This document shows positions 1 through 62,381 of a DNA stretch of 64,000 nucleotides, piece after piece. A program made the position numbers and the translations under genes. The stretch's first letter is position 1. Each line of letters starts with the position of its first letter. This DNA is from Candidatus Marinacidobacterales bacterium (GTDB lineage Bacteria > Acidobacteriota > Vicinamibacteria > Marinacidobacterales > SMYC01): assembly GCA_965224085.1 (NCBI GenBank), contig CBDCYI010000011.1:288001-352000 (forward strand), given 5' to 3'. The notes beneath the pieces are model-generated. The model ran no database searches. It had not been told where the DNA came from and saw only the letters and a program-made list of their open reading frames with translations.

Positions 1-605
1 CGGCATTCGAGGCCCTTGAGCGCCGCGTGCGCGAGGGACGATTGAAAGCCCCCGAGAAAATCGGTGCCGCCGCCGCGCGCATACAGGCACGCCACCACGG
101 TCACCGTTACTACGACTGGGAGTACAAAAACGCTCGCTTCCGCTTCTTCGAGCACCCGGTCAACCTCAAGCGCGAGCAAGCCTACGAGGGTAAGTACGTT
201 ATTCAAACCGAGGAGCAAAACCTCTCTCCGGTCGACGCCGTGCGCCTTTACAAGGACCTAAACGAGGTCGAGCGAGCCTTCTCATGCCTTAAGGATGTCA
301 TTGAGATGCATCCCGTTTACCACCAGACCGATGAGCGTGTGGAGGCACATCTTTTCGTAGCTACGCTGGCCTTCCTTGTGCATCGGGCTCTTGAGAAAAA
401 GCTCAAGGTCGCCGAACTCGACCTGTCCGCAACCGAGGCACTACAAGCGCTACGCTCGGTCCGGCTCGTCGACTTACAGCTGGGTTCTGGGCGGACCAAG
501 CGCGTCGTCACGCGCGGCACCGCTCGCGCCAACTCGATCCTGACTGCACTCGGAATCGTTGAACGCGACCCGCCAGCCTTCTCCGAGGAGGTGCTGTCAG
601 CGTAG
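1..605 (+). CDS. IS1634-family transposase, C-terminal part (runs off the window start)
   Basis: Motifs EGKYVIQT, Y..L.EVERAF..LK and PVYHQTDERVEAHLFV..LA are typical of IS1634 (IS4-like DDE) C-termini. Confidence 0.85.
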   Translation, partial: AFEALERRVREGRLKAPEKIGAAAARIQARHHGHRYYDWEYKNARFRFFEHPVNLKREQAYEGKYVIQTEEQNLSPVDAVRLYKDLNEVERAFSCLKDVIEMHPVYHQTDERVEAHLFVATLAFLVHRALEKKLKVAELDLSATEALQALRSVRLVDLQLGSGRTKRVVTRGTARANSILTALGIVERDPPAFSEEVLSA

Positions 606-669
606 AGACAAACCGCGGATCTCAGTCCTTTGTTTATGATGACTTAGAGACCTAAAAGGGAAACATGGG
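1..669 (+). mobile_element. Right part of an IS1634-family insertion sequence
   Basis: Transposase followed by a short tail ending ...GGGAAACATGGG(669), near where the neighbouring Rpn-like ORF terminates. Confidence 0.6.
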
Positions 670-1150
670 CTAGGGCTGTGTAGAGCACATTGCTCTTCTC
701 AACATACTCTTCTGCCTTCAGCGGTGCCAGTCTCAAGCTCTCGTAGCGAAACCTCAGCCGCTCACGCCCCATGAGCGTGATTTGGAACTCCTCCTCTGTC
801 AGAGCCTGTCCTCCTCCGCGTAGAAACGGCACGATGGGAAGAATCGGTATTTGATGACGCAGCCAGAGCAAAGCGTGGTAGTTGTACATCCTTCGTTCGA
901 AATCCTGCTCTTGGGCCGCTTGGACTTCGACATGAACGAGAATGAGCTCGGCGTCTCCTTCGAGGGTTTTGATCTCAGCGACGACGTCGGCTTCCCGCCG
1001 TCTGCCCTCTGGAAGGTCCATGAAGAGCTCTTTGTCCAAGAAACGAAGCGTGTCGAAGTCGAGGCGCTTCTCTGCGTCCGGATAGAACATCTGCAAAAAC
1101 TCACGAAATAGGCCTTTCAGAAGATCCTTGAATAGTTGGTCGTGACCCAT
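644..1150 (-). pseudogene. Rpn-family / PD-(D/E)XK putative transposase-nuclease, truncated by IS1634
   Basis: MGHDQLFKDLL..F.EFLQMFYP, FLDKELF, ADVV..ILVHVEVQ and FERRMYNY; the C-terminus reads into the IS end. Confidence 0.8.
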
Positions 1151-1252
1151 CTGAGCTGTCTCCCTGTGCACAACAGACGACAAACTCAGGGACAAACCTC
1201 CTTTCCTCCTCCGATTTTCTTCCGGCGACCGGGTGTTAGAATTGCCGACGAC

Positions 1253-1313
1253 GTGATCGGCCAAACGCTTGCCCACTGCAAGATCCTGGAGAAGATTGGC
1301 CAGTGCGGAATGG
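1253..1313 (+). pseudogene. Ser/Thr protein kinase, 5' fragment (before IS110 insertion)
   Basis: GTG start, MIGQTLAHCKILEKIGQCGM = kinase subdomain I; continues in frame at 3953. Confidence 0.85.
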
Positions 1314-1354
1314 ACTCCCCACGCCGGATCAAGAGAAAACGTTCTTCGTAATAG

Positions 1355-2611
1355 TCATCCGCGATTCGCTTTTTTTGTGGGCCACCGGGAGGGGTCGTAA
1401 AGGGTTCCTTGTCGAAGCATCGCAATGGCGATGGGGAGAATGCGGTCCATGACGCCTCTGAGAGCTCTGGCATGGCTGTGGCCTCTGTCACGAAGCCGGT
1501 CGTAGTGTTCTTTGAAGTGGGGGTCGTGCAAAACGGCAGTGCGTGCCCAATGGTGGAGAGCATTATTGAGGGGCAAAGAGCGAGCTCTCCTCATCAGGAT
1601 CGTTGGTCGCAACTGACCGCGCTTGCCGCTCTTTTTTGTGACAGGAGCAATGCCGCCGAGAGTCCTGAAGGCGTTGAGATTACGGAGCCGAATGGGGTCG
1701 TGGGCATAGCAGAGCACGGAGGCGAGCACGTAAGCACCGACGCCGGGCAAAGAGGCAAGAATGGCAGGGTCGGAGCAATGCTCGTCGGTTAGTGCTTGCA
1801 CGCGCTTGAACCACTTCTCGAGATGCTGGTCGGAGGCACGACGATGTTGTCGAACGAGGAGCAACTGCTGGAGTAGTAGTTGGAGATGCTCGGCGGTAGC
1901 TTGAGTGGTTGCGGTTGCGACCCGGAGAGGTTTTTGTTTGAGGGTATCGAGGATCTTCTCGGGTTTTAGACGTCGGATGCGGTGTTTTTGAGCGAGGGTC
2001 TCAATGGAGTGGCGGCTAAGAGGGTTGGGGCTGGATTCGAAGAAGAGTTTTAGGAGCTCGCAGAAAAAAGCGTCGAGAGCCTTGTCCTTTGGCGCGAGCG
2101 AGACGAGGTGAGGCCAGCAACGAGTAAGGAGTTCTCGGATCTGCGAGCTGAGGGCCACATGGTTTTTGACGAGTTGGTCGCGGGTACTCAGCAACCCGCG
2201 CATAGCGAGGATCTCCGTAGGTGGGAGATGCAAGCGCTGAAAGCGGTGGCCGTCGGTTCTGAGCGAATCGGCGAGAACGAAGGCGTCTCGCCGATCATCC
2301 TTGGCGCCGCTCATAGAATGCCGGTCGCGGAAACGGTCGACCTGCTTGGGATTGATGGAGAAAATGGCGATGCCGTGGTCAAGAAAGAGCTCGACGACGG
2401 CCCCATGAGGTTTTTCGATCGCCACCGCGATGCGCTCGGTATCTTGCGAGGTCTCTTCCAAAAGCCAGTCGATGGTTCCCGATAGTCCTTCGCGGCTATG
2501 GGGGAAGCCTCTCTCCGCCAAGAAGTTACCTTTGGCATCGACCACACTGGCCAAGTGAAGCCATTGACCCAGGTCGATACCGACGAAGAAGTCGTATTTG
2601 AGTTGATTCAT
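1355..2611 (-). CDS. IS110-family DEDD recombinase/transposase
   Basis: FVGID, AIE, KDDRRDA (DEDD RuvC-like) and C-terminal SLPGVG..GIAPVTKKSGK with the catalytic Ser; start 2611 or 2623. Confidence 0.95.
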   Translation of the reverse strand: MNQLKYDFFVGIDLGQWLHLASVVDAKGNFLAERGFPHSREGLSGTIDWLLEETSQDTERIAVAIEKPHGAVVELFLDHGIAIFSINPKQVDRFRDRHSMSGAKDDRRDAFVLADSLRTDGHRFQRLHLPPTEILAMRGLLSTRDQLVKNHVALSSQIRELLTRCWPHLVSLAPKDKALDAFFCELLKLFFESSPNPLSRHSIETLAQKHRIRRLKPEKILDTLKQKPLRVATATTQATAEHLQLLLQQLLLVRQHRRASDQHLEKWFKRVQALTDEHCSDPAILASLPGVGAYVLASVLCYAHDPIRLRNLNAFRTLGGIAPVTKKSGKRGQLRPTILMRRARSLPLNNALHHWARTAVLHDPHFKEHYDRLRDRGHSHARALRGVMDRILPIAIAMLRQGTLYDPSRWPTKKANRG

Positions 2612-2636
2612 GGAAGAACTCATTTCCGCCAGCGCA

Positions 2637-2775
2637 TGTGATGTTTCATCGGCCCCTGTACTGGCGCTCGAAGCGCAACTCCCCACTGGATGTCCATCAC
2701 AAAAGAATTGCCGGCACGCATGTCCATTCCTGGCGCTAGGAGCGCAGGGCGACGTATGGCGTTGCCGGCAAGCTG
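2637..2775 (-). ncRNA. IS110 bridge RNA (target-binding loop about 2708-2771, donor-binding loop about 2637-2701); 5' end uncertain
   Basis: Two stem/internal-loop modules share the inner hairpin GCGCT-NNN-AGCGC. Guide segments match the target (2747-2755, 2724-2730) and donor ends (2678-2686, 2655-2661). Confidence 0.88.
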
Positions 2776-2818
2776 CTGACGAAATCGAAAATAGTCCAAG
2801 CTCATCGTGATATTTGCT

Positions 2819-3235
2819 CTACCATGGCAATCGGAGTTGTCGCGCGATGCCACGAGTTCGTGCTCGGTTTTTTCTCGGTAGTTTCGGGCGAAGCACGTCC
2901 GAGAGTTTTTCTCGAATGTAAAGAACATAAGGCGGGTCTAGATATTGACTTTGCACTTCCTGGAGCACAGGTGAAAAATAACGAAGGGAGCGAATGGGCT
3001 GCAGTGGCTCCTCATGTTCTTGTAGCTCCCTACGAGCGCAACCCAGAAGTAGGGCACACTCGAATTCGTGTAACGGGACTCCTTGGCGGTAGAGCTGCGT
3101 CGCGATGAAGCGGTCGTCGCGCCGTGGCCGCTCAGGTGTGTTCGGAATGGAAAGATAGAGGTCCAAAATCGTCCGGACGTAATTGTTTTCTGTCAGAGCA
3201 TCGCTCGTGAGCGGTTCATTACCCAGCTTCGACAT
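2819..3235 (-). CDS. IS110 passenger ORF B, hypothetical 138-aa protein
   Basis: Protein-like ORF (LYLSIPNTP..R.DDR..A; PIRSLRYF.PV..EV), overlapping the end of ORF A. Confidence 0.7.
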   Translation of the reverse strand: MSKLGNEPLTSDALTENNYVRTILDLYLSIPNTPERPRRDDRFIATQLYRQGVPLHEFECALLLGCARRELQEHEEPLQPIRSLRYFSPVLQEVQSQYLDPPYVLYIREKLSDVLRPKLPRKNRARTRGIARQLRLPW

Positions 3236-3632
3236 CCTTTAGCCTCCCGCGTCGGCCGCAGATACAGCATTTGGCATATCTGATACTGTCAATCTTCGTT
3301 TTCATTGAATGAGCCATCGGGCCACTAGCTTGAATTTCACGAACTCCTAGACTGCCAGAATTACTGGGGTGAATGAACCCTTGCTCCGTCACTATTTTCG
3401 CCGCCTGGCGTAGACGATAATTCTGTTGCCGAGCCGCGTGGAGTTTTCGTGAGTTGAAACCTTTCTGGTAATTTCGGTTATTTTCGCGCTGGTTCTCTCG
3501 CCGGGTTTCGTCACGGCAGGTTGGACCGCAGTAGCACTGTCCCTGGTAACATGACTTGCAGATGAAGAAAGGCATCCCACAGCTTTTGTTGCGGCAGAAA
3601 AGCCGGAGAAGAACGACAGGTTTGGTGGCCAT
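3219..3632 (-). CDS. IS110 passenger ORF A, Cys-rich basic putative Zn-binding protein (start 3632 or 3728)
   Basis: C-x4-C, CxxC, YC-x3-C followed by an Arg-rich helix and a C-terminal CxxC. Confidence 0.7.
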   Translation of the reverse strand: MATKPVVLLRLFCRNKSCGMPFFICKSCYQGQCYCGPTCRDETRRENQRENNRNYQKGFNSRKLHAARQQNYRLRQAAKIVTEQGFIHPSNSGSLGVREIQASGPMAHSMKTKIDSIRYAKCCICGRRGRLKDVEAG

Positions 3633-3790
3633 TCGGAACTCAGCAAAGTGCTGGACGATGGCCGCCCGGATGTGAGAGGCTAGCTTCAACTTGTAGTGGA
3701 GCGCCTCCTCCGGGGGCCATCCAAACATCAGAGCCCCGGTCGTTTGTAGCGGCTGGGGCTCACTATTGTCGCACAGCAGGTTCACCCTCT

Positions 3791-3867
3791 TCTTGCCGGC
3801 GCGAGACGATCTGACTGACTCGCGCCAAAGGCGCGAGAGGATGCTGGCCTCGCGCCAGAGGCGCGGG
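3791..3867. repeat. Tandem palindromic repeats in the IS110 left end
   Basis: CTCGCGCC-AAA-GGCGCGAG (3819-3837) and CTCGCGCC-AGA-GGCGCGGG (3849-3867), 30-bp period, plus a degenerate copy at 3791-3805. Confidence 0.75.
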
Positions 3868-3952
3868 ATGAGGCCTTGTACACAGACATTTCCTACCGAC
3901 TCTTCCCGCAACACACGCTTTCGCTGCACTGATGCTTCGGCAAGCGTACAGG

Positions 3953-4140
3953 GTGACGTTTATCTGGCCCAGGACACGAAGCTCGGTCGCAGGGTTGCGC
4001 TCAAGGTTCTCCCTCCCGCGCTGGCGGAAAGCGAAGCGCGCCGGGCTCGCTTCAAACGTGAGGCCAAAGCCCTCGCAGCCCTGAATCATCCGAACATCAC
4101 GACACCGTCTCGAGCGCTATCAAAGCGTGCGGGAGCTTGA
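3953..4140 (+). pseudogene. Ser/Thr protein kinase fragment (after IS110), truncated after HPNI
   Basis: [36 protein letters not shown]. Confidence 0.9.
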
Positions 4141-4259
4141 AGGTCGACGCGGGCGCGGTCCTCACCGCGCATTCGTCGGGATCGCTGACGTAAGGCGTCG
4201 GATCGTCCAACGGCCACACCATCACGATGGGCCTGTCGCGGATTAGCGGCGCGACCTAC

Positions 4260-4907
4260 TCAGTCCGCGGCGGCGCCGGTGCCGATGGCGCCCAGCGACA
4301 CGAGCCAGATCGAGAAGGGGATCGCTCCTAGCGGAAAGAGGAACGACCACCCCGAGTCTCGGGTGAGGACCGCGATCGGTGGGGCCGCGCCGTACACGAG
4401 ACCGCCGAGAATGCCCACGACGGCCAGGGGACGCGCCAACATCACCCAACGCCATCCGACGCGCCCAGCAACGACGGCAGAGGACCAACATAGCACCGGA
4501 TAGGCCACGACGGAGAGCATCAGGTGCGTGTCGAGAATGGGCGTCGCGCCGCCTGCCGAGAGAGCGGCCACATCCATATCCGCGATCAGATGGAAGAACG
4601 CTTCGACGGACCAGAGCGCGCTCCCTACGACGGCCCACGTCATCGCCCGTCCGGCCCGTCGGCGAAACGCGTCGTCGCGTCTGGCGAGGACGAAGGCGAT
4701 CACGAGGAATACGGCTCCCGCGAGCGTTAGCCAATGGGAGAGCGGCCAAGACGGATCCGAAAGCATTGCCACGAAGTGCGCATCGAAGCCGGCAGTTGGA
4801 TCACCTGGCGGGTGGTTCATGCCGCCCGCCACGAACAGCACCCCCGCCACGACCATCGCAGCCCGCCACGACCACGATTGGCCCGCCTTGGTGCTCGATG
4901 CAGACAT
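4260..4907 (-). CDS. Integral membrane protein (DUF4386-like)
   Basis: 215 aa with about 6 hydrophobic helices and an N-terminal HP motif. Confidence 0.65.
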   Translation of the reverse strand: MSASSTKAGQSWSWRAAMVVAGVLFVAGGMNHPPGDPTAGFDAHFVAMLSDPSWPLSHWLTLAGAVFLVIAFVLARRDDAFRRRAGRAMTWAVVGSALWSVEAFFHLIADMDVAALSAGGATPILDTHLMLSVVAYPVLCWSSAVVAGRVGWRWVMLARPLAVVGILGGLVYGAAPPIAVLTRDSGWSFLFPLGAIPFSIWLVSLGAIGTGAAAD

Positions 4908-5199
4908 GGTGCGAGGAATCTACCAGATCCTCCTTCTGATGGCCAATGCGTCGTGGAATTGAGGAATAGGAACTTTGACTCCAAGCACCTCGTGTACTGG
5001 CACGAACTGGAGTGCTCGGGAGTACGGAACAGCGGGATGGATGGGGAGAGTCCGTCCTAGGGCCAGCACCCCGGTGTTGTTTTGTGCCGAGGCGGTTCCT
5101 AGGGGGCGCCGGGCGCAGACGGGTATCGCGCTGGGACGGGTGCGGTGTTGTCAGGTCGCTGGTTGTGGCGGAGGAGCTCGGCGTAGATGGGCTATAGCT

Positions 5200-5663
5200 C
5201 AGCCCTCGCCGATACCGGTTCAGGCGCACCGTGGGGTACGGCGAGGACTTACATTCTGGGTGTCTGGGTCATCCCCGTCGAAGGTGTTGACGCTAGACAT
5301 TTGGCGACGCCAGGGTCTTTGCCAGATTGGTCGCCGGATGGGCGATTCATCTCCTTTCCTTTGAGGGTCCCCGCCGCGTCCCGGCAGATGGGGGAATCCT
5401 GAGCAGTTAGCGGAGGCGGAAGCGGTCGAGGGCGTACGATGGTCGAAGGATGGCCGCGGATCAATTTCTGCAGAAGCACCGATAGCGGAAGAAATTTCTG
5501 GGAGGTGTCGGCCGAAGGCGGGGCGGAACGAGCTCTAACCGAGCTCGAGGGCAAGCGAGGCATCGCGAATAGGTGGGCCCTGTCAACGGACGGACACTAT
5601 CTCTACTTTGTGTGGCAGGAGGAGTTCGGAGACATCTGGGTCATGGACGTCACCCAAGATTAG
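5200..5663 (+). pseudogene. Fragments of a TolB-like beta-propeller C-terminus (kinase-TolB type)
   Basis: PDWSPDGRFISF and STDGHYLYF..GDIWVMDV in different frames. Confidence 0.6.
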
Positions 5664-5688
5664 CGAACGCCACTCTCGCTCGCTTCTA

Positions 5689-5724
5689 TTGACTACCTAT
5701 AGGAGTTGTCGTGTACTCCTATAG
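5689..5724 (+). promoter_or_regulatory. Putative padR promoter with inverted-repeat operator
   Basis: TTGACT at 5689; CTATAGGAGT (5697-5706) / ACTCCTATAG (5715-5724). Confidence 0.55.
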
Positions 5725-5740
5725 TCTAGCTGTAGAAGTC

Positions 5741-5956
5741 ATGATGAGAGCATCGAAGACCGACGTCCCGCCTGGAACGCTCGAGCTCCTGATTCTGAAG
5801 ACTCTGTCTCTCGAGCCCATGCACGGGCTCGGCGTGTCGAAACGGCTCGAGCAGATCACCCGCGGCACGTTTCAAGTGAACCCTGGGTCGTTTTTTCCCG
5901 CGCTTCATCGTATGGAGCAAGAAGGGTTCCTGGAAGGTGAGTGGGGTCGCTTGTAG
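5741..5956 (+). pseudogene. PadR-family regulator (acidobacterial type), truncated
   Basis: GTLELLILKTL..PMHG.G...LEQ....FQVNPGS.FPALHRME..G; stops after EWG. Confidence 0.85.
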
Positions 5957-6357
5957 CCCCCGAAAGATTTAGTCTCGGCTTGCTCGGTACATTCGGGATG
6001 ACGGGGTTTCTCCTGGCGCTCGTCGGTGTATACGGCGTCTTGTCCCACGTGGTAAGCCTGAGGCGACAGGAGTTCGGTCTTCGTATTGCCCTTGGTGCAC
6101 GAACGGTGGAGATCGCACGCATGGTGCTCGCGCGGGGAACGCGAGTCGTCGCCTCCGGGGTCGCGATCGGTCTCGTCGCTGCCATCGGTCTCGCCCGCCT
6201 CATCGAGAGCCTGCTCTACGCGGTCAGCCCGACGGGTCCCGCGACCTATGCGATCGTGGCGGCGCTCGTTCTCGCGGTCAGTCTCCTAGCGTGTGCCGTT
6301 CCCGCCTACCGGGCTGCGCAGATCGACCCAATGAAGACGTTGCGCTTGGAGCAGTGA
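5950..6357 (+). pseudogene. ADOP-type ABC permease, C-terminal fragment
   Basis: GVYGVLS..V..RRQEFGLRIALGA ... PAYRAAQIDPMKTLR. Confidence 0.85.
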
Positions 6358-6526
6358 CGGCGAGACACACGACGAGCGCCACCCGCGCTGACGATGAGAT
6401 GTTACTGCTTGTCGTGAACTCGTCTCGCATGGGGTGTGCGGATACACCGGATAGCGAGCCGTTGAGGTCTCGAGTTCAGATGACGTCGATGCGCACCTTG
6501 CGTTCGCGCTCATTTGATTCGGCCGG

Positions 6527-7873
6527 CTAGATTGCCTTCGCGACGCTCACGATGGCTTCGAGGCTCTTTTCGACGTCCTCTTCGGTCGTTGCCCAGGACG
6601 AGACGCTGATGCGCATCGCGCCTCGGCCTCTCCAGTTGGTGCCGCTGCACCAGCACGTGCCCTCCTCCTGCACCGCGGCGATGACGCGCTCGGTCTGCTC
6701 GTCGCTTCCAAAGGAGACGAGCACTTGATTGAGCACGACGTCGTTGAGGATCACGTAGCCCGCGCCGTGGAGGCCGGCCGCGAAACGGCGCGCGAAGCGG
6801 CAGTGGCGTTCGATGAGCTCTCGCAAGCCCGAGCGGCCCAGAGATAAAAGCGCCGCCCAGATCTCTACGCCGCGGGCACGCCGCGAGGACTCGGGCGTGT
6901 AGTCGCAAGGCTGGCGCTCTTCGCCTTTCGGCAAATAGGCCGCTGTAATCGAGAGCGCTTGGCGCGCGGCCTCCGGGTCACGATAAAGCGCGAGCCCGTT
7001 GTCATAGGGTACGTTGAGCCACTTGTGAAGATCCGTAGCGATGGAATCGACGTCGGCGATACCCTCTGTGAGCTGGCGCGTCTCGGGCGAGGCCGCTGCC
7101 CACAGACCGAAGGCACCGTCGAGATGAATCCACGCCCCCGCGTCTCGTGCGCGTGCAGCAATCTCCGCTACGGGGTCGAAGCTTCCTGTGTTGACGTTCC
7201 CAGCTTGCAGGCAGACGATGCTTGGCGCACGTAACGTTGGAAGCTTGTCCGCCCGCACCCGTCCTTGTCGGTCGACGGGTACTTTGATGACGCGCTCTCG
7301 GCCGAAGCCGACGAGTGCGAGCGCTTGCAATAGAGTCGTATGGGCTTCGGCCCCCACGATGACTTGAACTTCAGGAGCACCGAAGAGTCCCTGCGCCTCG
7401 ACGTCCCATCCGACCTTTTCTAAAACCGCGTGCCGTCCTGCGGCCAAGCCGGAAAAGTTGCCCATGGTCGTCCCCGTGACGAAGCCGCCGCCCCAGCTCT
7501 TCGGTAGATCCAGAATCTCGCGAACCCATGAGAGCGCGGTGTTCTCGATCGCGGCGGCGACGGGTGAGCCGATGACAAAATGCGCGTTTTGATCCCACGC
7601 ACCCGCGAGCCAATTCGCGGCCAAACTCGCGGGGAGTGCTCCGCCAGTCACGAATCCAAAATATCGAGGTCCCGCATTCGCAATCGTGGCGGGCGATCCC
7701 CATTCGTCGAGTCGTTGCAACACTTCCTTGGGTGCGGTGGGTGCTTCCGGTAGCGCGCCTAAAAAAGCTCCCAACCTTGCGATCGCATCGGGTCTCGGCT
7801 CGACCGGGCGATCGGAAAGGCCGTTCAAATAGTTGACCGAGCGCGTGAGCGCATCAGAAAGGAGATCCTTCAC
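6527..7873 (-). CDS. Group II PLP-dependent decarboxylase
   Basis: PRYFGFVTGG, HLDGAFG, DSIATDLHKWLNVPYD (PLP lysine). Confidence 0.9.
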   Translation of the reverse strand: MKDLLSDALTRSVNYLNGLSDRPVEPRPDAIARLGAFLGALPEAPTAPKEVLQRLDEWGSPATIANAGPRYFGFVTGGALPASLAANWLAGAWDQNAHFVIGSPVAAAIENTALSWVREILDLPKSWGGGFVTGTTMGNFSGLAAGRHAVLEKVGWDVEAQGLFGAPEVQVIVGAEAHTTLLQALALVGFGRERVIKVPVDRQGRVRADKLPTLRAPSIVCLQAGNVNTGSFDPVAEIAARARDAGAWIHLDGAFGLWAAASPETRQLTEGIADVDSIATDLHKWLNVPYDNGLALYRDPEAARQALSITAAYLPKGEERQPCDYTPESSRRARGVEIWAALLSLGRSGLRELIERHCRFARRFAAGLHGAGYVILNDVVLNQVLVSFGSDEQTERVIAAVQEEGTCWCSGTNWRGRGAMRISVSSWATTEEDVEKSLEAIVSVAKAI

Positions 7874-7888
7874 TCTTCGATTCTAAAC

Positions 7889-7913
7889 AAAAAAAGGGGG
7901 CCCAGGGCCCCCT
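7889..7913 (-). terminator. Rho-independent terminator
   Basis: AGGGGGCCC-N-GGGCCCCCT inverted repeat followed by a T-run on the minus strand. Confidence 0.75.
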
Positions 7914-7938
7914 GTGTCCGGAGAGAAACGAAGGAAAA

Positions 7939-8088
7939 TTAATTGGCGCCTTTATCGGCGTTGGCCTTCTGATTCTTGTTTCTCTCGCGAGTTTTGGCGC
8001 GTGTTTGCGCGGCGAGGCGCCGAAAATAGCGCTGCCTCTCGGCCCAACCGCCGCGCCTTCTTCTGGCGAACATATTGTGTGCGTACAT
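7939..8088 (-). CDS. Small basic protein, 49 aa (absent from the ORF track)
   Basis: AAAGGT SD-like motif, ATG, MYAHNMFARRRRGGWAERQRYFRRLAAQTRAKTRERNKNQKANADKGAN, TAA, then terminator. Confidence 0.55.
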   Translation of the reverse strand: MYAHNMFARRRRGGWAERQRYFRRLAAQTRAKTRERNKNQKANADKGAN

Positions 8089-62126: not shown

Positions 62127-62381
62127 TTATCGTCTTTCCTCTGTCCCTCTATCAAGACTGCCCATCCAACGGTAAACCGTGGCAATGTTCGGATGGTTCA
62201 GCGACGCGAACAGCTGCGCTTCGCGTTCGAAGCGCGCGACGACCGCTTCGGGGAGGACTTTGATCGCGACGTCGCGCCTGAGCTTCGTGTCCCGGGCACG
62301 GTAGACCTCGCCCGTTCCACCTTTGCCGATGAGCTCGAGCATCTCATCGACGCCGAGCCGGCCACCCGCAGTGAGAGACAT
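62127..62381 (-). pseudogene. Ser/Thr kinase N-terminal remnant
   Basis: IGKGGTGEVYRARDTKLRRDVAIKVLP..RFEREA...ASLNHPNIA. Confidence 0.88.

Follow-up and report, generated by a model that had tools for sequence, protein, structure and literature searches.

A predicted bridge-RNA insertion sequence of the IS110 group directed at the glycine-loop codons of Ser/Thr kinase genes

The DNA analyzed here, called the window throughout, is a stretch of 64,000 nucleotides from a Candidatus Marinacidobacterales bacterium (assembly GCA_965224085.1, contig CBDCYI010000011.1, positions 288,001 to 352,000). Near its left edge, it carries an IS110-family element of 2639 bp at window positions 1314-3952, minus strand, whose limits were set from its junctions and from an alignment of its copies. 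We consider it very probable (roughly 90%) that this is an active-looking insertion sequence of the IS110 group that works by a bridge-RNA mechanism and targets the codons of the glycine-rich loop (Gly-loop) of kinase genes. Given that the predicted guides and the occupied site both correspond to the kinase Gly-loop, the kinase paralog family would serve as a multi-copy landing pad. This role, and with it a natural reprogramming of bridge-RNA specificity, had been proposed in a first-pass annotation of the DNA and is supported by the kinase-loop flanks of related elements, by guide variation restricted to wobble positions, and by covariation between guides and flanks.

Assignment to the IS110 group is straightforward: both characteristic transposase domains are present, terminal inverted repeats are absent, and nothing is duplicated past the core. 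The transposase matches the N-terminal DEDD RuvC-like domain PF01548 over residues 10-167 (E 2.8e-31, 108.8 bits against a cut-off of 29) and the C-terminal Transposase_20 domain PF02371 (E 1.1e-11, 45.4 bits against 21.3), as well as the NCBIfam model NF033542, “IS110 family RNA-guided transposase” (162.9 bits against 140). A search of the element ends found no inverted pair with arms at 1314 and 3952. As first annotated, the element splits a kinase gene at GGAATGG^GTGACGT (here and below, ^ marks the junction). The left junction lies at 1313/1314 (...GGAATGG^ACTCCCCAC; in a longer plus-strand read, ...GCGGAATGG^ACTCCCCACGCC) and the right junction at 3952/3953 (...CGTACAGG^GTGACGT; in a longer plus-strand read, ...AAGCGTACAGG^GTGACGTTTAT). 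The dinucleotide CC, which is GG on the plus strand, is the only sequence common to donor and target, occurs once per junction, and represents the core; beyond it, neither junction shows a target duplication. Removing the element rebuilds an empty site, ...KILEKIGQCGM^..., that is, a Ser/Thr kinase N terminus split inside the glycine-rich loop. In the direction of the transposase, the element runs from its left end (LE) at 3952 through a leader (3952-3633), a Cys-rich open reading frame (ORF), ORF138, the predicted bridge RNA, and the transposase to its right end (RE), which finishes at 1314. The features, in window order, are as follows.

1241-1313, plus strand: N-terminal remnant of the split Ser/Thr kinase gene (...AHCKILEKIGQCGM); the right half-target GGAATGG forms its end
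1314-1354, minus strand: RE of the element; its last 9 nucleotides (nt), GTGGGGAGT when read on the minus strand, correspond to the left donor guide (LDG)
1355-2611, minus strand: IS110-family transposase (bridge recombinase), 418 amino acids (aa), intact; PF01548, PF02371, NF033542
2627-2781, minus strand: predicted bridge RNA, whole, with an outer stem of 2781-2775 paired with 2633-2627; the covariance model spans 2790-2620
2637-2701, minus strand: donor-binding loop, with LDG GUGGGGAGU (2686-2678), a hairpin, and right donor guide (RDG) GUACAGG (2661-2655)
2708-2771, minus strand: target-binding loop, with left target guide (LTG) ACGUCGCCC (2755-2747), a hairpin, and right target guide (RTG) GGAAUGG (2730-2724)
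2819-3235, minus strand: accessory ORF138, 138 aa, predicted all-helical, of no known family; found in long-form elements
3219-3632, minus strand: accessory Cys-rich ORF, 137 aa, with four conserved Cys pairs and a basic helical hairpin; found in short and long forms
3633-3952, minus strand: LE leader, beginning CCTGTAC, the complement of the RDG
3953-4140, plus strand: C-terminal side of the interrupted kinase (...LNHPNI), cut off after about 50 kinase codons (kinase profile positions 13-63, E 2.9e-17)

The limits are fixed independently by the copies in the window's own genome (6.87 Mb, 12 contigs; G000), where three full copies are 100% identical over exactly positions 1-2639 and a fourth, near-identical copy measures 2641 bp. 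The same genome additionally holds two internally deleted copies, three fragments, a family B of three copies that are 85-91% identical to the window element, and one remnant at 77-79% identity.

The predicted bridge RNA comprises about 155 nt and five helices, with an outer stem that encloses the target loop followed by the donor loop, each consisting of a stem, a left guide, a hairpin, a right guide, and the closing stem. The guide words singled out in the first-pass annotation all held up. In the target loop, ACGTCGCCC at 2755-2747 matches the kinase flank ACGTCACCC at 8 of 9 positions, and GGAATGG at 2730-2724 is the exact complement of CCATTCC; in the donor loop, GTGGGGAGT at 2686-2678 matches the last 9 nt of the RE at 9 of 9 positions, and GTACAGG at 2661-2655 is the exact complement of CCTGTAC, that is, of the core plus 5 nt. 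The encoded target, ACGTCGC-CC-ATTCC, is the antisense of GGA-ATG-GGC-GAC-GT and hence reads G-M-G-D-V, as had been claimed. Each of the four words is rare, with 2-6 occurrences on both strands of the 64-kb window, and the naive chance of finding all four within one 170-nt stretch is about 1e-9. A covariance model built from four sequences recovers the RNA 5' of the transposase gene in each of the 51 close loci described below (143-215 bits) and, more weakly, in distant ones. In a 50-row alignment (41 distinct sequences), 96.5% of the cells are paired and 9 of 36 pairs carry compensatory changes, with 0 of 500 shuffles as high, and sliding the pairing partners cuts the paired cells to 17-45%; these counts come from an alignment fitted to our own model, which favors pairing.

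Relatives were retrieved from three collections by transposase similarity alone. Among 61 related genomes there were two close relatives, G009 (62%) and G002 (a partial copy, 80-91%). The species-level genome collection returned the same two, as L047 and L063, together with 58 far more distant loci whose full-length matches are at most 46% identical, a few short partial matches reaching 69% on their best segment. The metagenome collection contributed 47 loci at 60-94% and 33 loci at 36-44% transposase identity. The resulting clade set holds 51 bridge RNAs with transposases that are 60-94% identical, and a flank could be recovered for 42 of these loci. Of the 42, one is the window itself (GQCGM), and the other 41 fit G.G..(M)^ and ^[EDVT]V[YFW]. 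Thus, as the first-pass annotation had expected of homologues, every relative with a recoverable flank, in other genomes and in metagenomes, sits in a kinase Gly-loop at the same nucleotide (site motif xYxIxxxGxGGM^G[EDVT]VY), always antisense to the kinase. L047 (62%) and L063 (90%) are both in kinase loops and show matching guide changes. Twelve flanks extend over more than 150 codons; 10 were tested, and all 10 match Pkinase from profile position 14 or 15. As a control, a profile built from the kinases of the window's own genome found kinase ORFs beside 25 of 49 clade loci, the flanks of the remaining 24 being too short for scoring, versus none of the 91 IS110 loci at greater distance. In the distant relatives, the RNA scaffold is retained but the guide words are unrelated: at 36-44% transposase identity, L154-L186 and L166-L185 give RNA model matches of 25-67 bits with the same stems and hairpins but quite different guides, suggesting that the scaffold is much older than the kinase specificity.

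Since the neighboring peptides differ between loci, the insertions are separate events. Alternatively, the element could have spread among kinases by homologous recombination or gene conversion between paralogs, carrying the kinase flanks along. Paralogs do share Gly-loop sequence on both sides of the element, and a 16-nt left-end scar in one kinase, apparently from a microhomology deletion, points to recombination at such loci. However, the flanks of the identical copies in the window's own genome are unrelated outside the 14-nt site, some copies lie in non-kinase sequence at partial target matches, the same junction nucleotide recurs in about 40 kinases with different neighboring peptides, and the donor loop specifies exactly both ends of the element. 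We therefore regard spread by recombination between paralogs as highly improbable, and guided insertion into kinase genes as the better account of these flanks.

The guides of the clade vary in a way that follows the genetic code. The LTG reads AC[N]TC[N]CCC in 50 of 51 RNAs and the RTG reads GG[N]ATGG in all 51, so that the encoded site on the kinase strand is GGN-ATG-GGN-GAN-GT and the three variable letters correspond to the third positions of the Gly, Gly, and Asp/Glu codons. No column of the RNA core varies more than the third RTG position (RTG3; 1.91 bits); LTG6 and LTG3 reach 1.55 and 1.40 bits, and all other guide positions stay at or below 0.46. Mapped on a 49-row transposase tree, the guide alleles require a minimum of 21 changes at RTG3, 11 at LTG3, and 17 at LTG6, and near-identical transposases can carry differing guides (L107 versus L108, L126 versus L127). 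Family B of the window's own genome has LTG ACTTCGCCC and RTG GGTATGG, and two of its three sites read GGTATGG. The one exception to the LTG pattern, L152, has LTG ACGGTACCC with flank ACGGTTC, encoding G-T-V. On the donor side, one sub-lineage combines RDG GTATAGG with left end CCTATAC and LDG GTGGGAAGT with right end ...GTGGGAAGT, so that guide and end have changed together.

We compared guides with flanks after removal of duplicate events, against shuffled pairings (20000 shuffles per test). Guide-target covariation across homologues, which the first-pass annotation had put forward as a check, was found, strongly for RTG3 and LTG3 and weakly for LTG6. RTG3 matches its flank in 28 of 44 events (11.9 expected) and LTG3 in 22 of 42 (11.5 expected), in both cases with 0 of 20000 shuffles as high, although kinship among the sequences makes such shuffle p-values overstate the case. 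When the window's own genome is excluded, RTG3 still matches in 21 of 33 events (p 5e-5). In 15 of the 20 LTG3 mismatches, a guide U faces a target C and would form an rU-dG wobble with the bottom strand; if wobble is counted, 37 of 42 events are pairable, versus 25.7 expected. The bases just 5' of the LTG and of the RTG vary without covarying with the flanks (p 0.17 and 0.95), which indicates guide lengths of 9 and 7; longer guides were rejected on this ground. Left arms carry 0, 1, 2, or 3 mismatches in 3, 27, 9, and 3 events, and right arms 0, 1, or 2 in 27, 15, and 2 events. The covariation may be blurred by metagenome assemblies that join the interior of one copy to the flank of another, and a guide may have changed since insertion.

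Several observations weigh against a kinase-directed bridge RNA, among them the distribution of insertions in the window's own genome. Eight of its 14 insertion events are in kinase loops (A1, which is the window copy; A3; A5; B1; B2; B3; C1, the 77% remnant; and the scar kinase at C11:655213), with A5, B2, and B3 assigned on the motif alone. The other six (A2, A4, A6, A7, A8, and A9) are not in kinases. The first-pass annotation had taken copies in unrelated sequence as evidence against itself; such copies do occur in this genome, whereas none occurs among the 41 relatives. The sites of the three complete non-kinase copies match the encoded target at 12, 11, and 9 of 14 positions, and we therefore read all six events as off-targets rather than as signs of another specificity. 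Off-targets of this kind fit the tolerance of half-matches to the RNA that is described, in the consulted part of that preprint, for cargo-bearing IS110 elements (Hu et al. 2026, 10.64898/2026.08.14.744561). The genome has 61 Pkinase matches, 52 of them above the cut-off; 44 include the N terminus, and 25 of these 44 read G-M-G. Its intact kinases are mostly at least 3 mismatches away from guides A and B, with C5:176698 an exact match to B, and it may be that the scarcity of good kinase targets caused the off-target copies of lineage A.

Other such points concern the guides and the RNA itself. LTG6 covaries weakly (22 of 42 events versus 16.4 expected, p 0.037), and without the window's own genome both LTG3 and LTG6 drop to 16 of 34 (p 0.02 and p 0.11, respectively). 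The LDG is followed by U-G rather than C-C and thus has no canonical pairing with the CC core, and the first base of the family B LDG mismatches the element end. The single sequence does not fold better than its shuffles (z -1.67, with 12 of 200 folding equally well), and a search of window positions 1-8000 against Rfam gave no family match (one chance hit, 17.4 bits, where the gathering score is 229). Between the left end and the RNA lie 600-1200 nt, which include the accessory ORF or ORFs, and a scan of window positions 1200-4100 found no sigma-70-like promoter inside the element. Finally, RNA-library contigs of relatives (88-99% alike) overlie parts of the transposase and positions 2655-2751, but assembled contigs cannot show a transcript or its ends; those of the marine-sediment library X15 leave 2752-2848 uncovered and cover little of the accessory ORFs, and library X16 supplies a single contig at 2874-3161.

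Alternatively, the site could be chosen by the protein or by a short generic motif such as ATGG^G, with kinases being richest in this motif and the guide-like matches incidental. In favor of this, the sites share only a short invariant stretch (ATGG^G..A..GT), the copies in the window's own genome tolerate 2-5 mismatches of 14, and fold energy alone is not significant. However, the three variable guide positions covary with the flanks and the neighboring positions do not, L152 changed two further LTG positions along with its target, and one sub-lineage changed its donor guides and element ends together. Moreover, although this genome contains 104 sites at two mismatches from target A (3 at one mismatch, none exact), the relatives elsewhere lie in kinases in 41 of 41 cases. 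Choice by a generic motif thus seems very unlikely to us, and targeting by the RNA guides remains the preferred reading.

On this preferred reading, the element would excise as a circle, as expected from the IS110 family, and the joined ends would provide its promoter. Every recovered RE has TTGAC[CA], or TTGATC in the window lineage, 13 nt from its end, and all recovered left ends begin CCTG-TAC[GT]CT; in the window, the -35-like hexamer TTGATC is at 1332-1327 and the -10-like TACGCT at 3948-3943, both on the minus strand. The RE-LE junction of a circle would thus combine TTGAC[CA] or TTGATC with TAC[GT]CT across a 17-nt spacer in all recovered ends, which as a consensus match suggests that the junction creates a promoter. 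No conserved promoter lies just upstream of the RNA, where the first 9 model columns are variable. Given that the element has no sigma-70-like site within it, a single junction-driven transcript is likeliest, and it would carry the accessory ORF or ORFs, the bridge RNA, and the recombinase. In the recombinase-RNA complex, the LTG would pair with the bottom strand of a kinase Gly-loop and the RTG with its top strand, and strand exchange would take place at the CC core. Neither a circle junction nor an empty site for this locus was seen among the contig joints of the examined runs (the RNA libraries X15, X16, and X18, together with X1; 4 of 24 listed runs, all of them contig assemblies), where contigs cannot show a circle junction.

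The kinase gene that is hit is disrupted, not preserved. The idea that the element provides an in-frame start and thereby rescues the kinase was considered and rejected, as the frame that stays open into the kinase spans 39 codons at the median and 0-16 codons in many relatives; in one sub-lineage, a stop codon falls exactly at the junction with the kinase. The absence of a conserved frame from element into kinase indicates that insertion breaks the gene. Several hit genes have also decayed: the window kinase ends prematurely after about 50 codons, A3 carries a frameshift, and the sequence of A5 decays directly past the loop. Since IS110 excision to a circle is scarless, with recombination at the core, in the part of the IS621 report consulted here (Durrant et al. 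2024, PMC11208160), insertions could be more than parasitic and act as a reversible on/off switch of kinases, or else prune a redundant kinome to the benefit of the host. In line with this, several interrupted kinases are otherwise intact (L047, with 762 aa downstream that include kinase and TPR domains, and B1, profile 13-259), and eight kinase genes in one genome carry the element family or its scar. The decayed genes and the lack of a conserved frame argue against it, and we judge such a switch or pruning role unlikely, if less so than the two alternatives discussed above. Disruption of the kinase by the insertion remains the reading that we prefer.

Two accessory genes accompany the clade. 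Of these, the Cys-rich ORF was found in 41 loci and ORF138 in 38, and both are confined to the clade (0 of 91 distant loci); in the window they overlap by 17 nt, and short-form elements, with about 600 nt from left end to RNA, have the Cys-rich ORF only. Protein identity falls to about 31-35% in loci whose transposases remain at least 60% identical, which marks the accessory ORFs as real genes. Conserved in the Cys-rich protein are C-x2-4-C, C-x2-C, YC-x3-C, and a C-terminal C-x2-CGR, and its structure model combines a beta, zinc-ribbon-like part with a long basic helical hairpin; the ORF138 model has five helices (predicted local distance difference test scores of 78.1 and 79.2 for the accessory models). 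Neither ORF has a match in Pfam. In NCBIfam, ORF138 has none and the Cys-rich ORF stays far below the cut-off (16.9 bits against 117, E 0.0059). Foldseek against the PDB returned nothing at E <= 0.001 for either model, an Atlas search of the accessory ORFs returned unnamed clusters only, and a search of 5.8 billion proteins with the Cys-rich ORF alone returned 72 clusters, all unnamed or “hypothetical.” Our guess, held with low confidence, is that the accessory proteins act as a nucleic-acid-binding cofactor or regulator.

It is tempting to speculate further that this IS110 clade is a specialized parasite of one protein family. Its target loop would be a nucleic-acid copy of the Gly-loop motif, of which sub-lineages re-tune three wobble letters to the codon variants of the paralogs, with a U at LTG3 reading both Glu codons by rU-dG wobble. 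The accessory Zn-ribbon-like basic and helical proteins would be new cofactors in excision, RNA release, or control. To this picture as a whole we would give somewhat less than an even chance.

A number of further observations were made in and around the element. The transposase frame continues without a stop across the donor loop, as far upstream as a GTG at 2686 (window 2611-2686, minus strand); L047 lacks an ATG at the usual start, and its transposase may therefore start within the RNA. In the LE leader, upstream of the Cys-rich ORF, two tandem palindromes lie 30 nt apart at 3819-3874 (CTCGCGCC-AAA/AGA-GGCGCG...); they could be a protein-binding site or an attenuator. Just to the left of the element, window positions 3-605 on the plus strand encode a weak C-terminal fragment of DDE_Tnp_1 that is below the cut-off (E 0.0048), and 644-1276 on the minus strand encodes a putative transposase of the YhgA-like family PF04754 (E 3.3e-5, 24 bits, cut-off 21); the kinase remnant, on the opposite strand, overlaps the 5' end of this ORF.

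Other observations concern kinase sequences. The window contains a second kinase remnant, for which the first-pass annotation had correctly given a 12-of-14 match to the encoded target (GGAACGGGCGAGGT, 62305-62318, minus strand). This remnant covers a kinase N terminus at 62160-62339 on the minus strand (ELIGKGGTGEVYRARDTKLRR, profile 4-68); its Gly-loop reads G-T-G, not G-M-G, and is unoccupied by the element. At G000:C11:655198-655229, a kinase (profile 13-245) reads ...HYEILEPIGK, followed by the last 16 nt of the element's left end (CGGCAAGCGTACAGG...) and then GEVYRARD. Here, the element seems to have been deleted via a 7-nt microhomology, CGGCAAG, common to the kinase and the left end, leaving a frameshifting scar. 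Two truncated family B copies (G000:C4:1482119-1483872 and G000:C11:764578-766945) both end abruptly; one adjoins an inverted kinase N terminus with a Gly-loop 1 mismatch from guide B, and the other adjoins a 28-nt right-end fragment, inverted and flanked by a GGAATGG of its own. Copies in different kinases seem to have rearranged with each other here. Two contigs of the X15 library track the N terminus of the window kinase (from about 1257) to 1300 and then continue ...GGAATGGGCGACGTCTACCTGGCC; at the level of contig evidence, they represent an uninterrupted relative of the host kinase whose Gly-loop matches the target encoded by guide A at 14 of 14 positions.

The comparisons with known systems that follow draw on parts of the published texts. 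Like IS621 (Durrant et al. 2024, PMC11208160), the element combines a recombinase of DEDD and Tnp_20 domains with an RNA that lies 5' of the gene and presents its target loop before its donor loop. Also shared are the sense of the LTG and LDG, which follow the left halves and would thus pair with the bottom strand; the complementarity of RTG and RDG to the right halves; a 2-nt core common to donor and target and spanned by the LTG, RTG, and RDG; and the lack of inverted repeats. For the promoter that is rebuilt at the circle junction of IS621, the conserved hexamers of the present ends are a candidate counterpart. In contrast to IS621 (PMC11208160), the target is a protein-coding motif of a paralog family rather than a repetitive extragenic palindrome (REP) or another intergenic repeat, the core is CC instead of CT, the RNA lies deep inside the left end behind one or two conserved ORFs instead of at the end, and canonical pairing between LDG and core is missing. 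Another difference from IS621 and other IS110-group elements in the same source is that the guides of the clade diversify at codon wobble positions only. The Pseudomonas putida elements ISPpu9 and ISPpu10 (PMC12288879; bioRxiv 10.64898/2026.03.19.712850) are likewise IS110 elements with a multi-copy genomic landing pad, but instead of codons of a protein motif, their pads are REPs or a single conserved intergenic sequence. Cargo-bearing IS110 elements (Hu et al. 2026, 10.64898/2026.08.14.744561) similarly exceed a minimal model of 1.5 kb and carry extra genes; their cargo, however, is variable and often plasmid derived or made up of resistance genes, rather than one or two small clade-conserved ORFs, and the words “kinase,” “zinc,” and “hypothetical” are absent from the text of that preprint.

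We found no published report of a natural kinase-gene target for an IS110 element or bridge RNA, although Supplementary Table 1 or Supplementary Data 2 of Durrant et al. 2024 may list the motif unnamed; “kinase” is absent from the texts of Durrant et al. 2024 and of the IS110-origins preprint. The natural bridge-RNA targets named in the consulted parts of the compared literature are intergenic repeats or parts of other mobile elements (PMC11208160; PMC12288879; 10.64898/2026.08.14.744561). As judged from sequence, the mechanism is that of known bridge-RNA IS110 elements. Relative to the print that we found, three features appear to be new: a conserved protein-coding motif of a paralog family as the natural target of a whole clade, guide evolution that seems confined to codon wobble positions, and predicted conserved accessory genes between the left end and the RNA. 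Selfish elements that reside in conserved protein motifs are otherwise represented by inteins and by group I and group II introns with homing endonucleases, whose sites are kept by selection on the host protein; these elements splice out, preserving the host gene, and recognition is by protein. In contrast, the element described here disrupts the gene, relies on the redundancy of paralogs, and would recognize its site by a guide RNA.

For the element, this means a landing pad that is kept in place by selection on a host protein motif and supplied in many copies by the size of the paralog family. The dozens of guide/target pairs amount to a natural guide-reprogramming experiment that could calibrate the mismatch and wobble rules of bridge recombinases, and the depth at which the RNA lies suggests that a bridge RNA can work from far within a longer, gene-carrying element. 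Two little-studied small proteins travel with the clade. For the host, the large Ser/Thr kinase families of Acidobacteriota-type genomes become linked to a dedicated mutagen, of which eight kinase genes in this genome alone carry the element or its scar.

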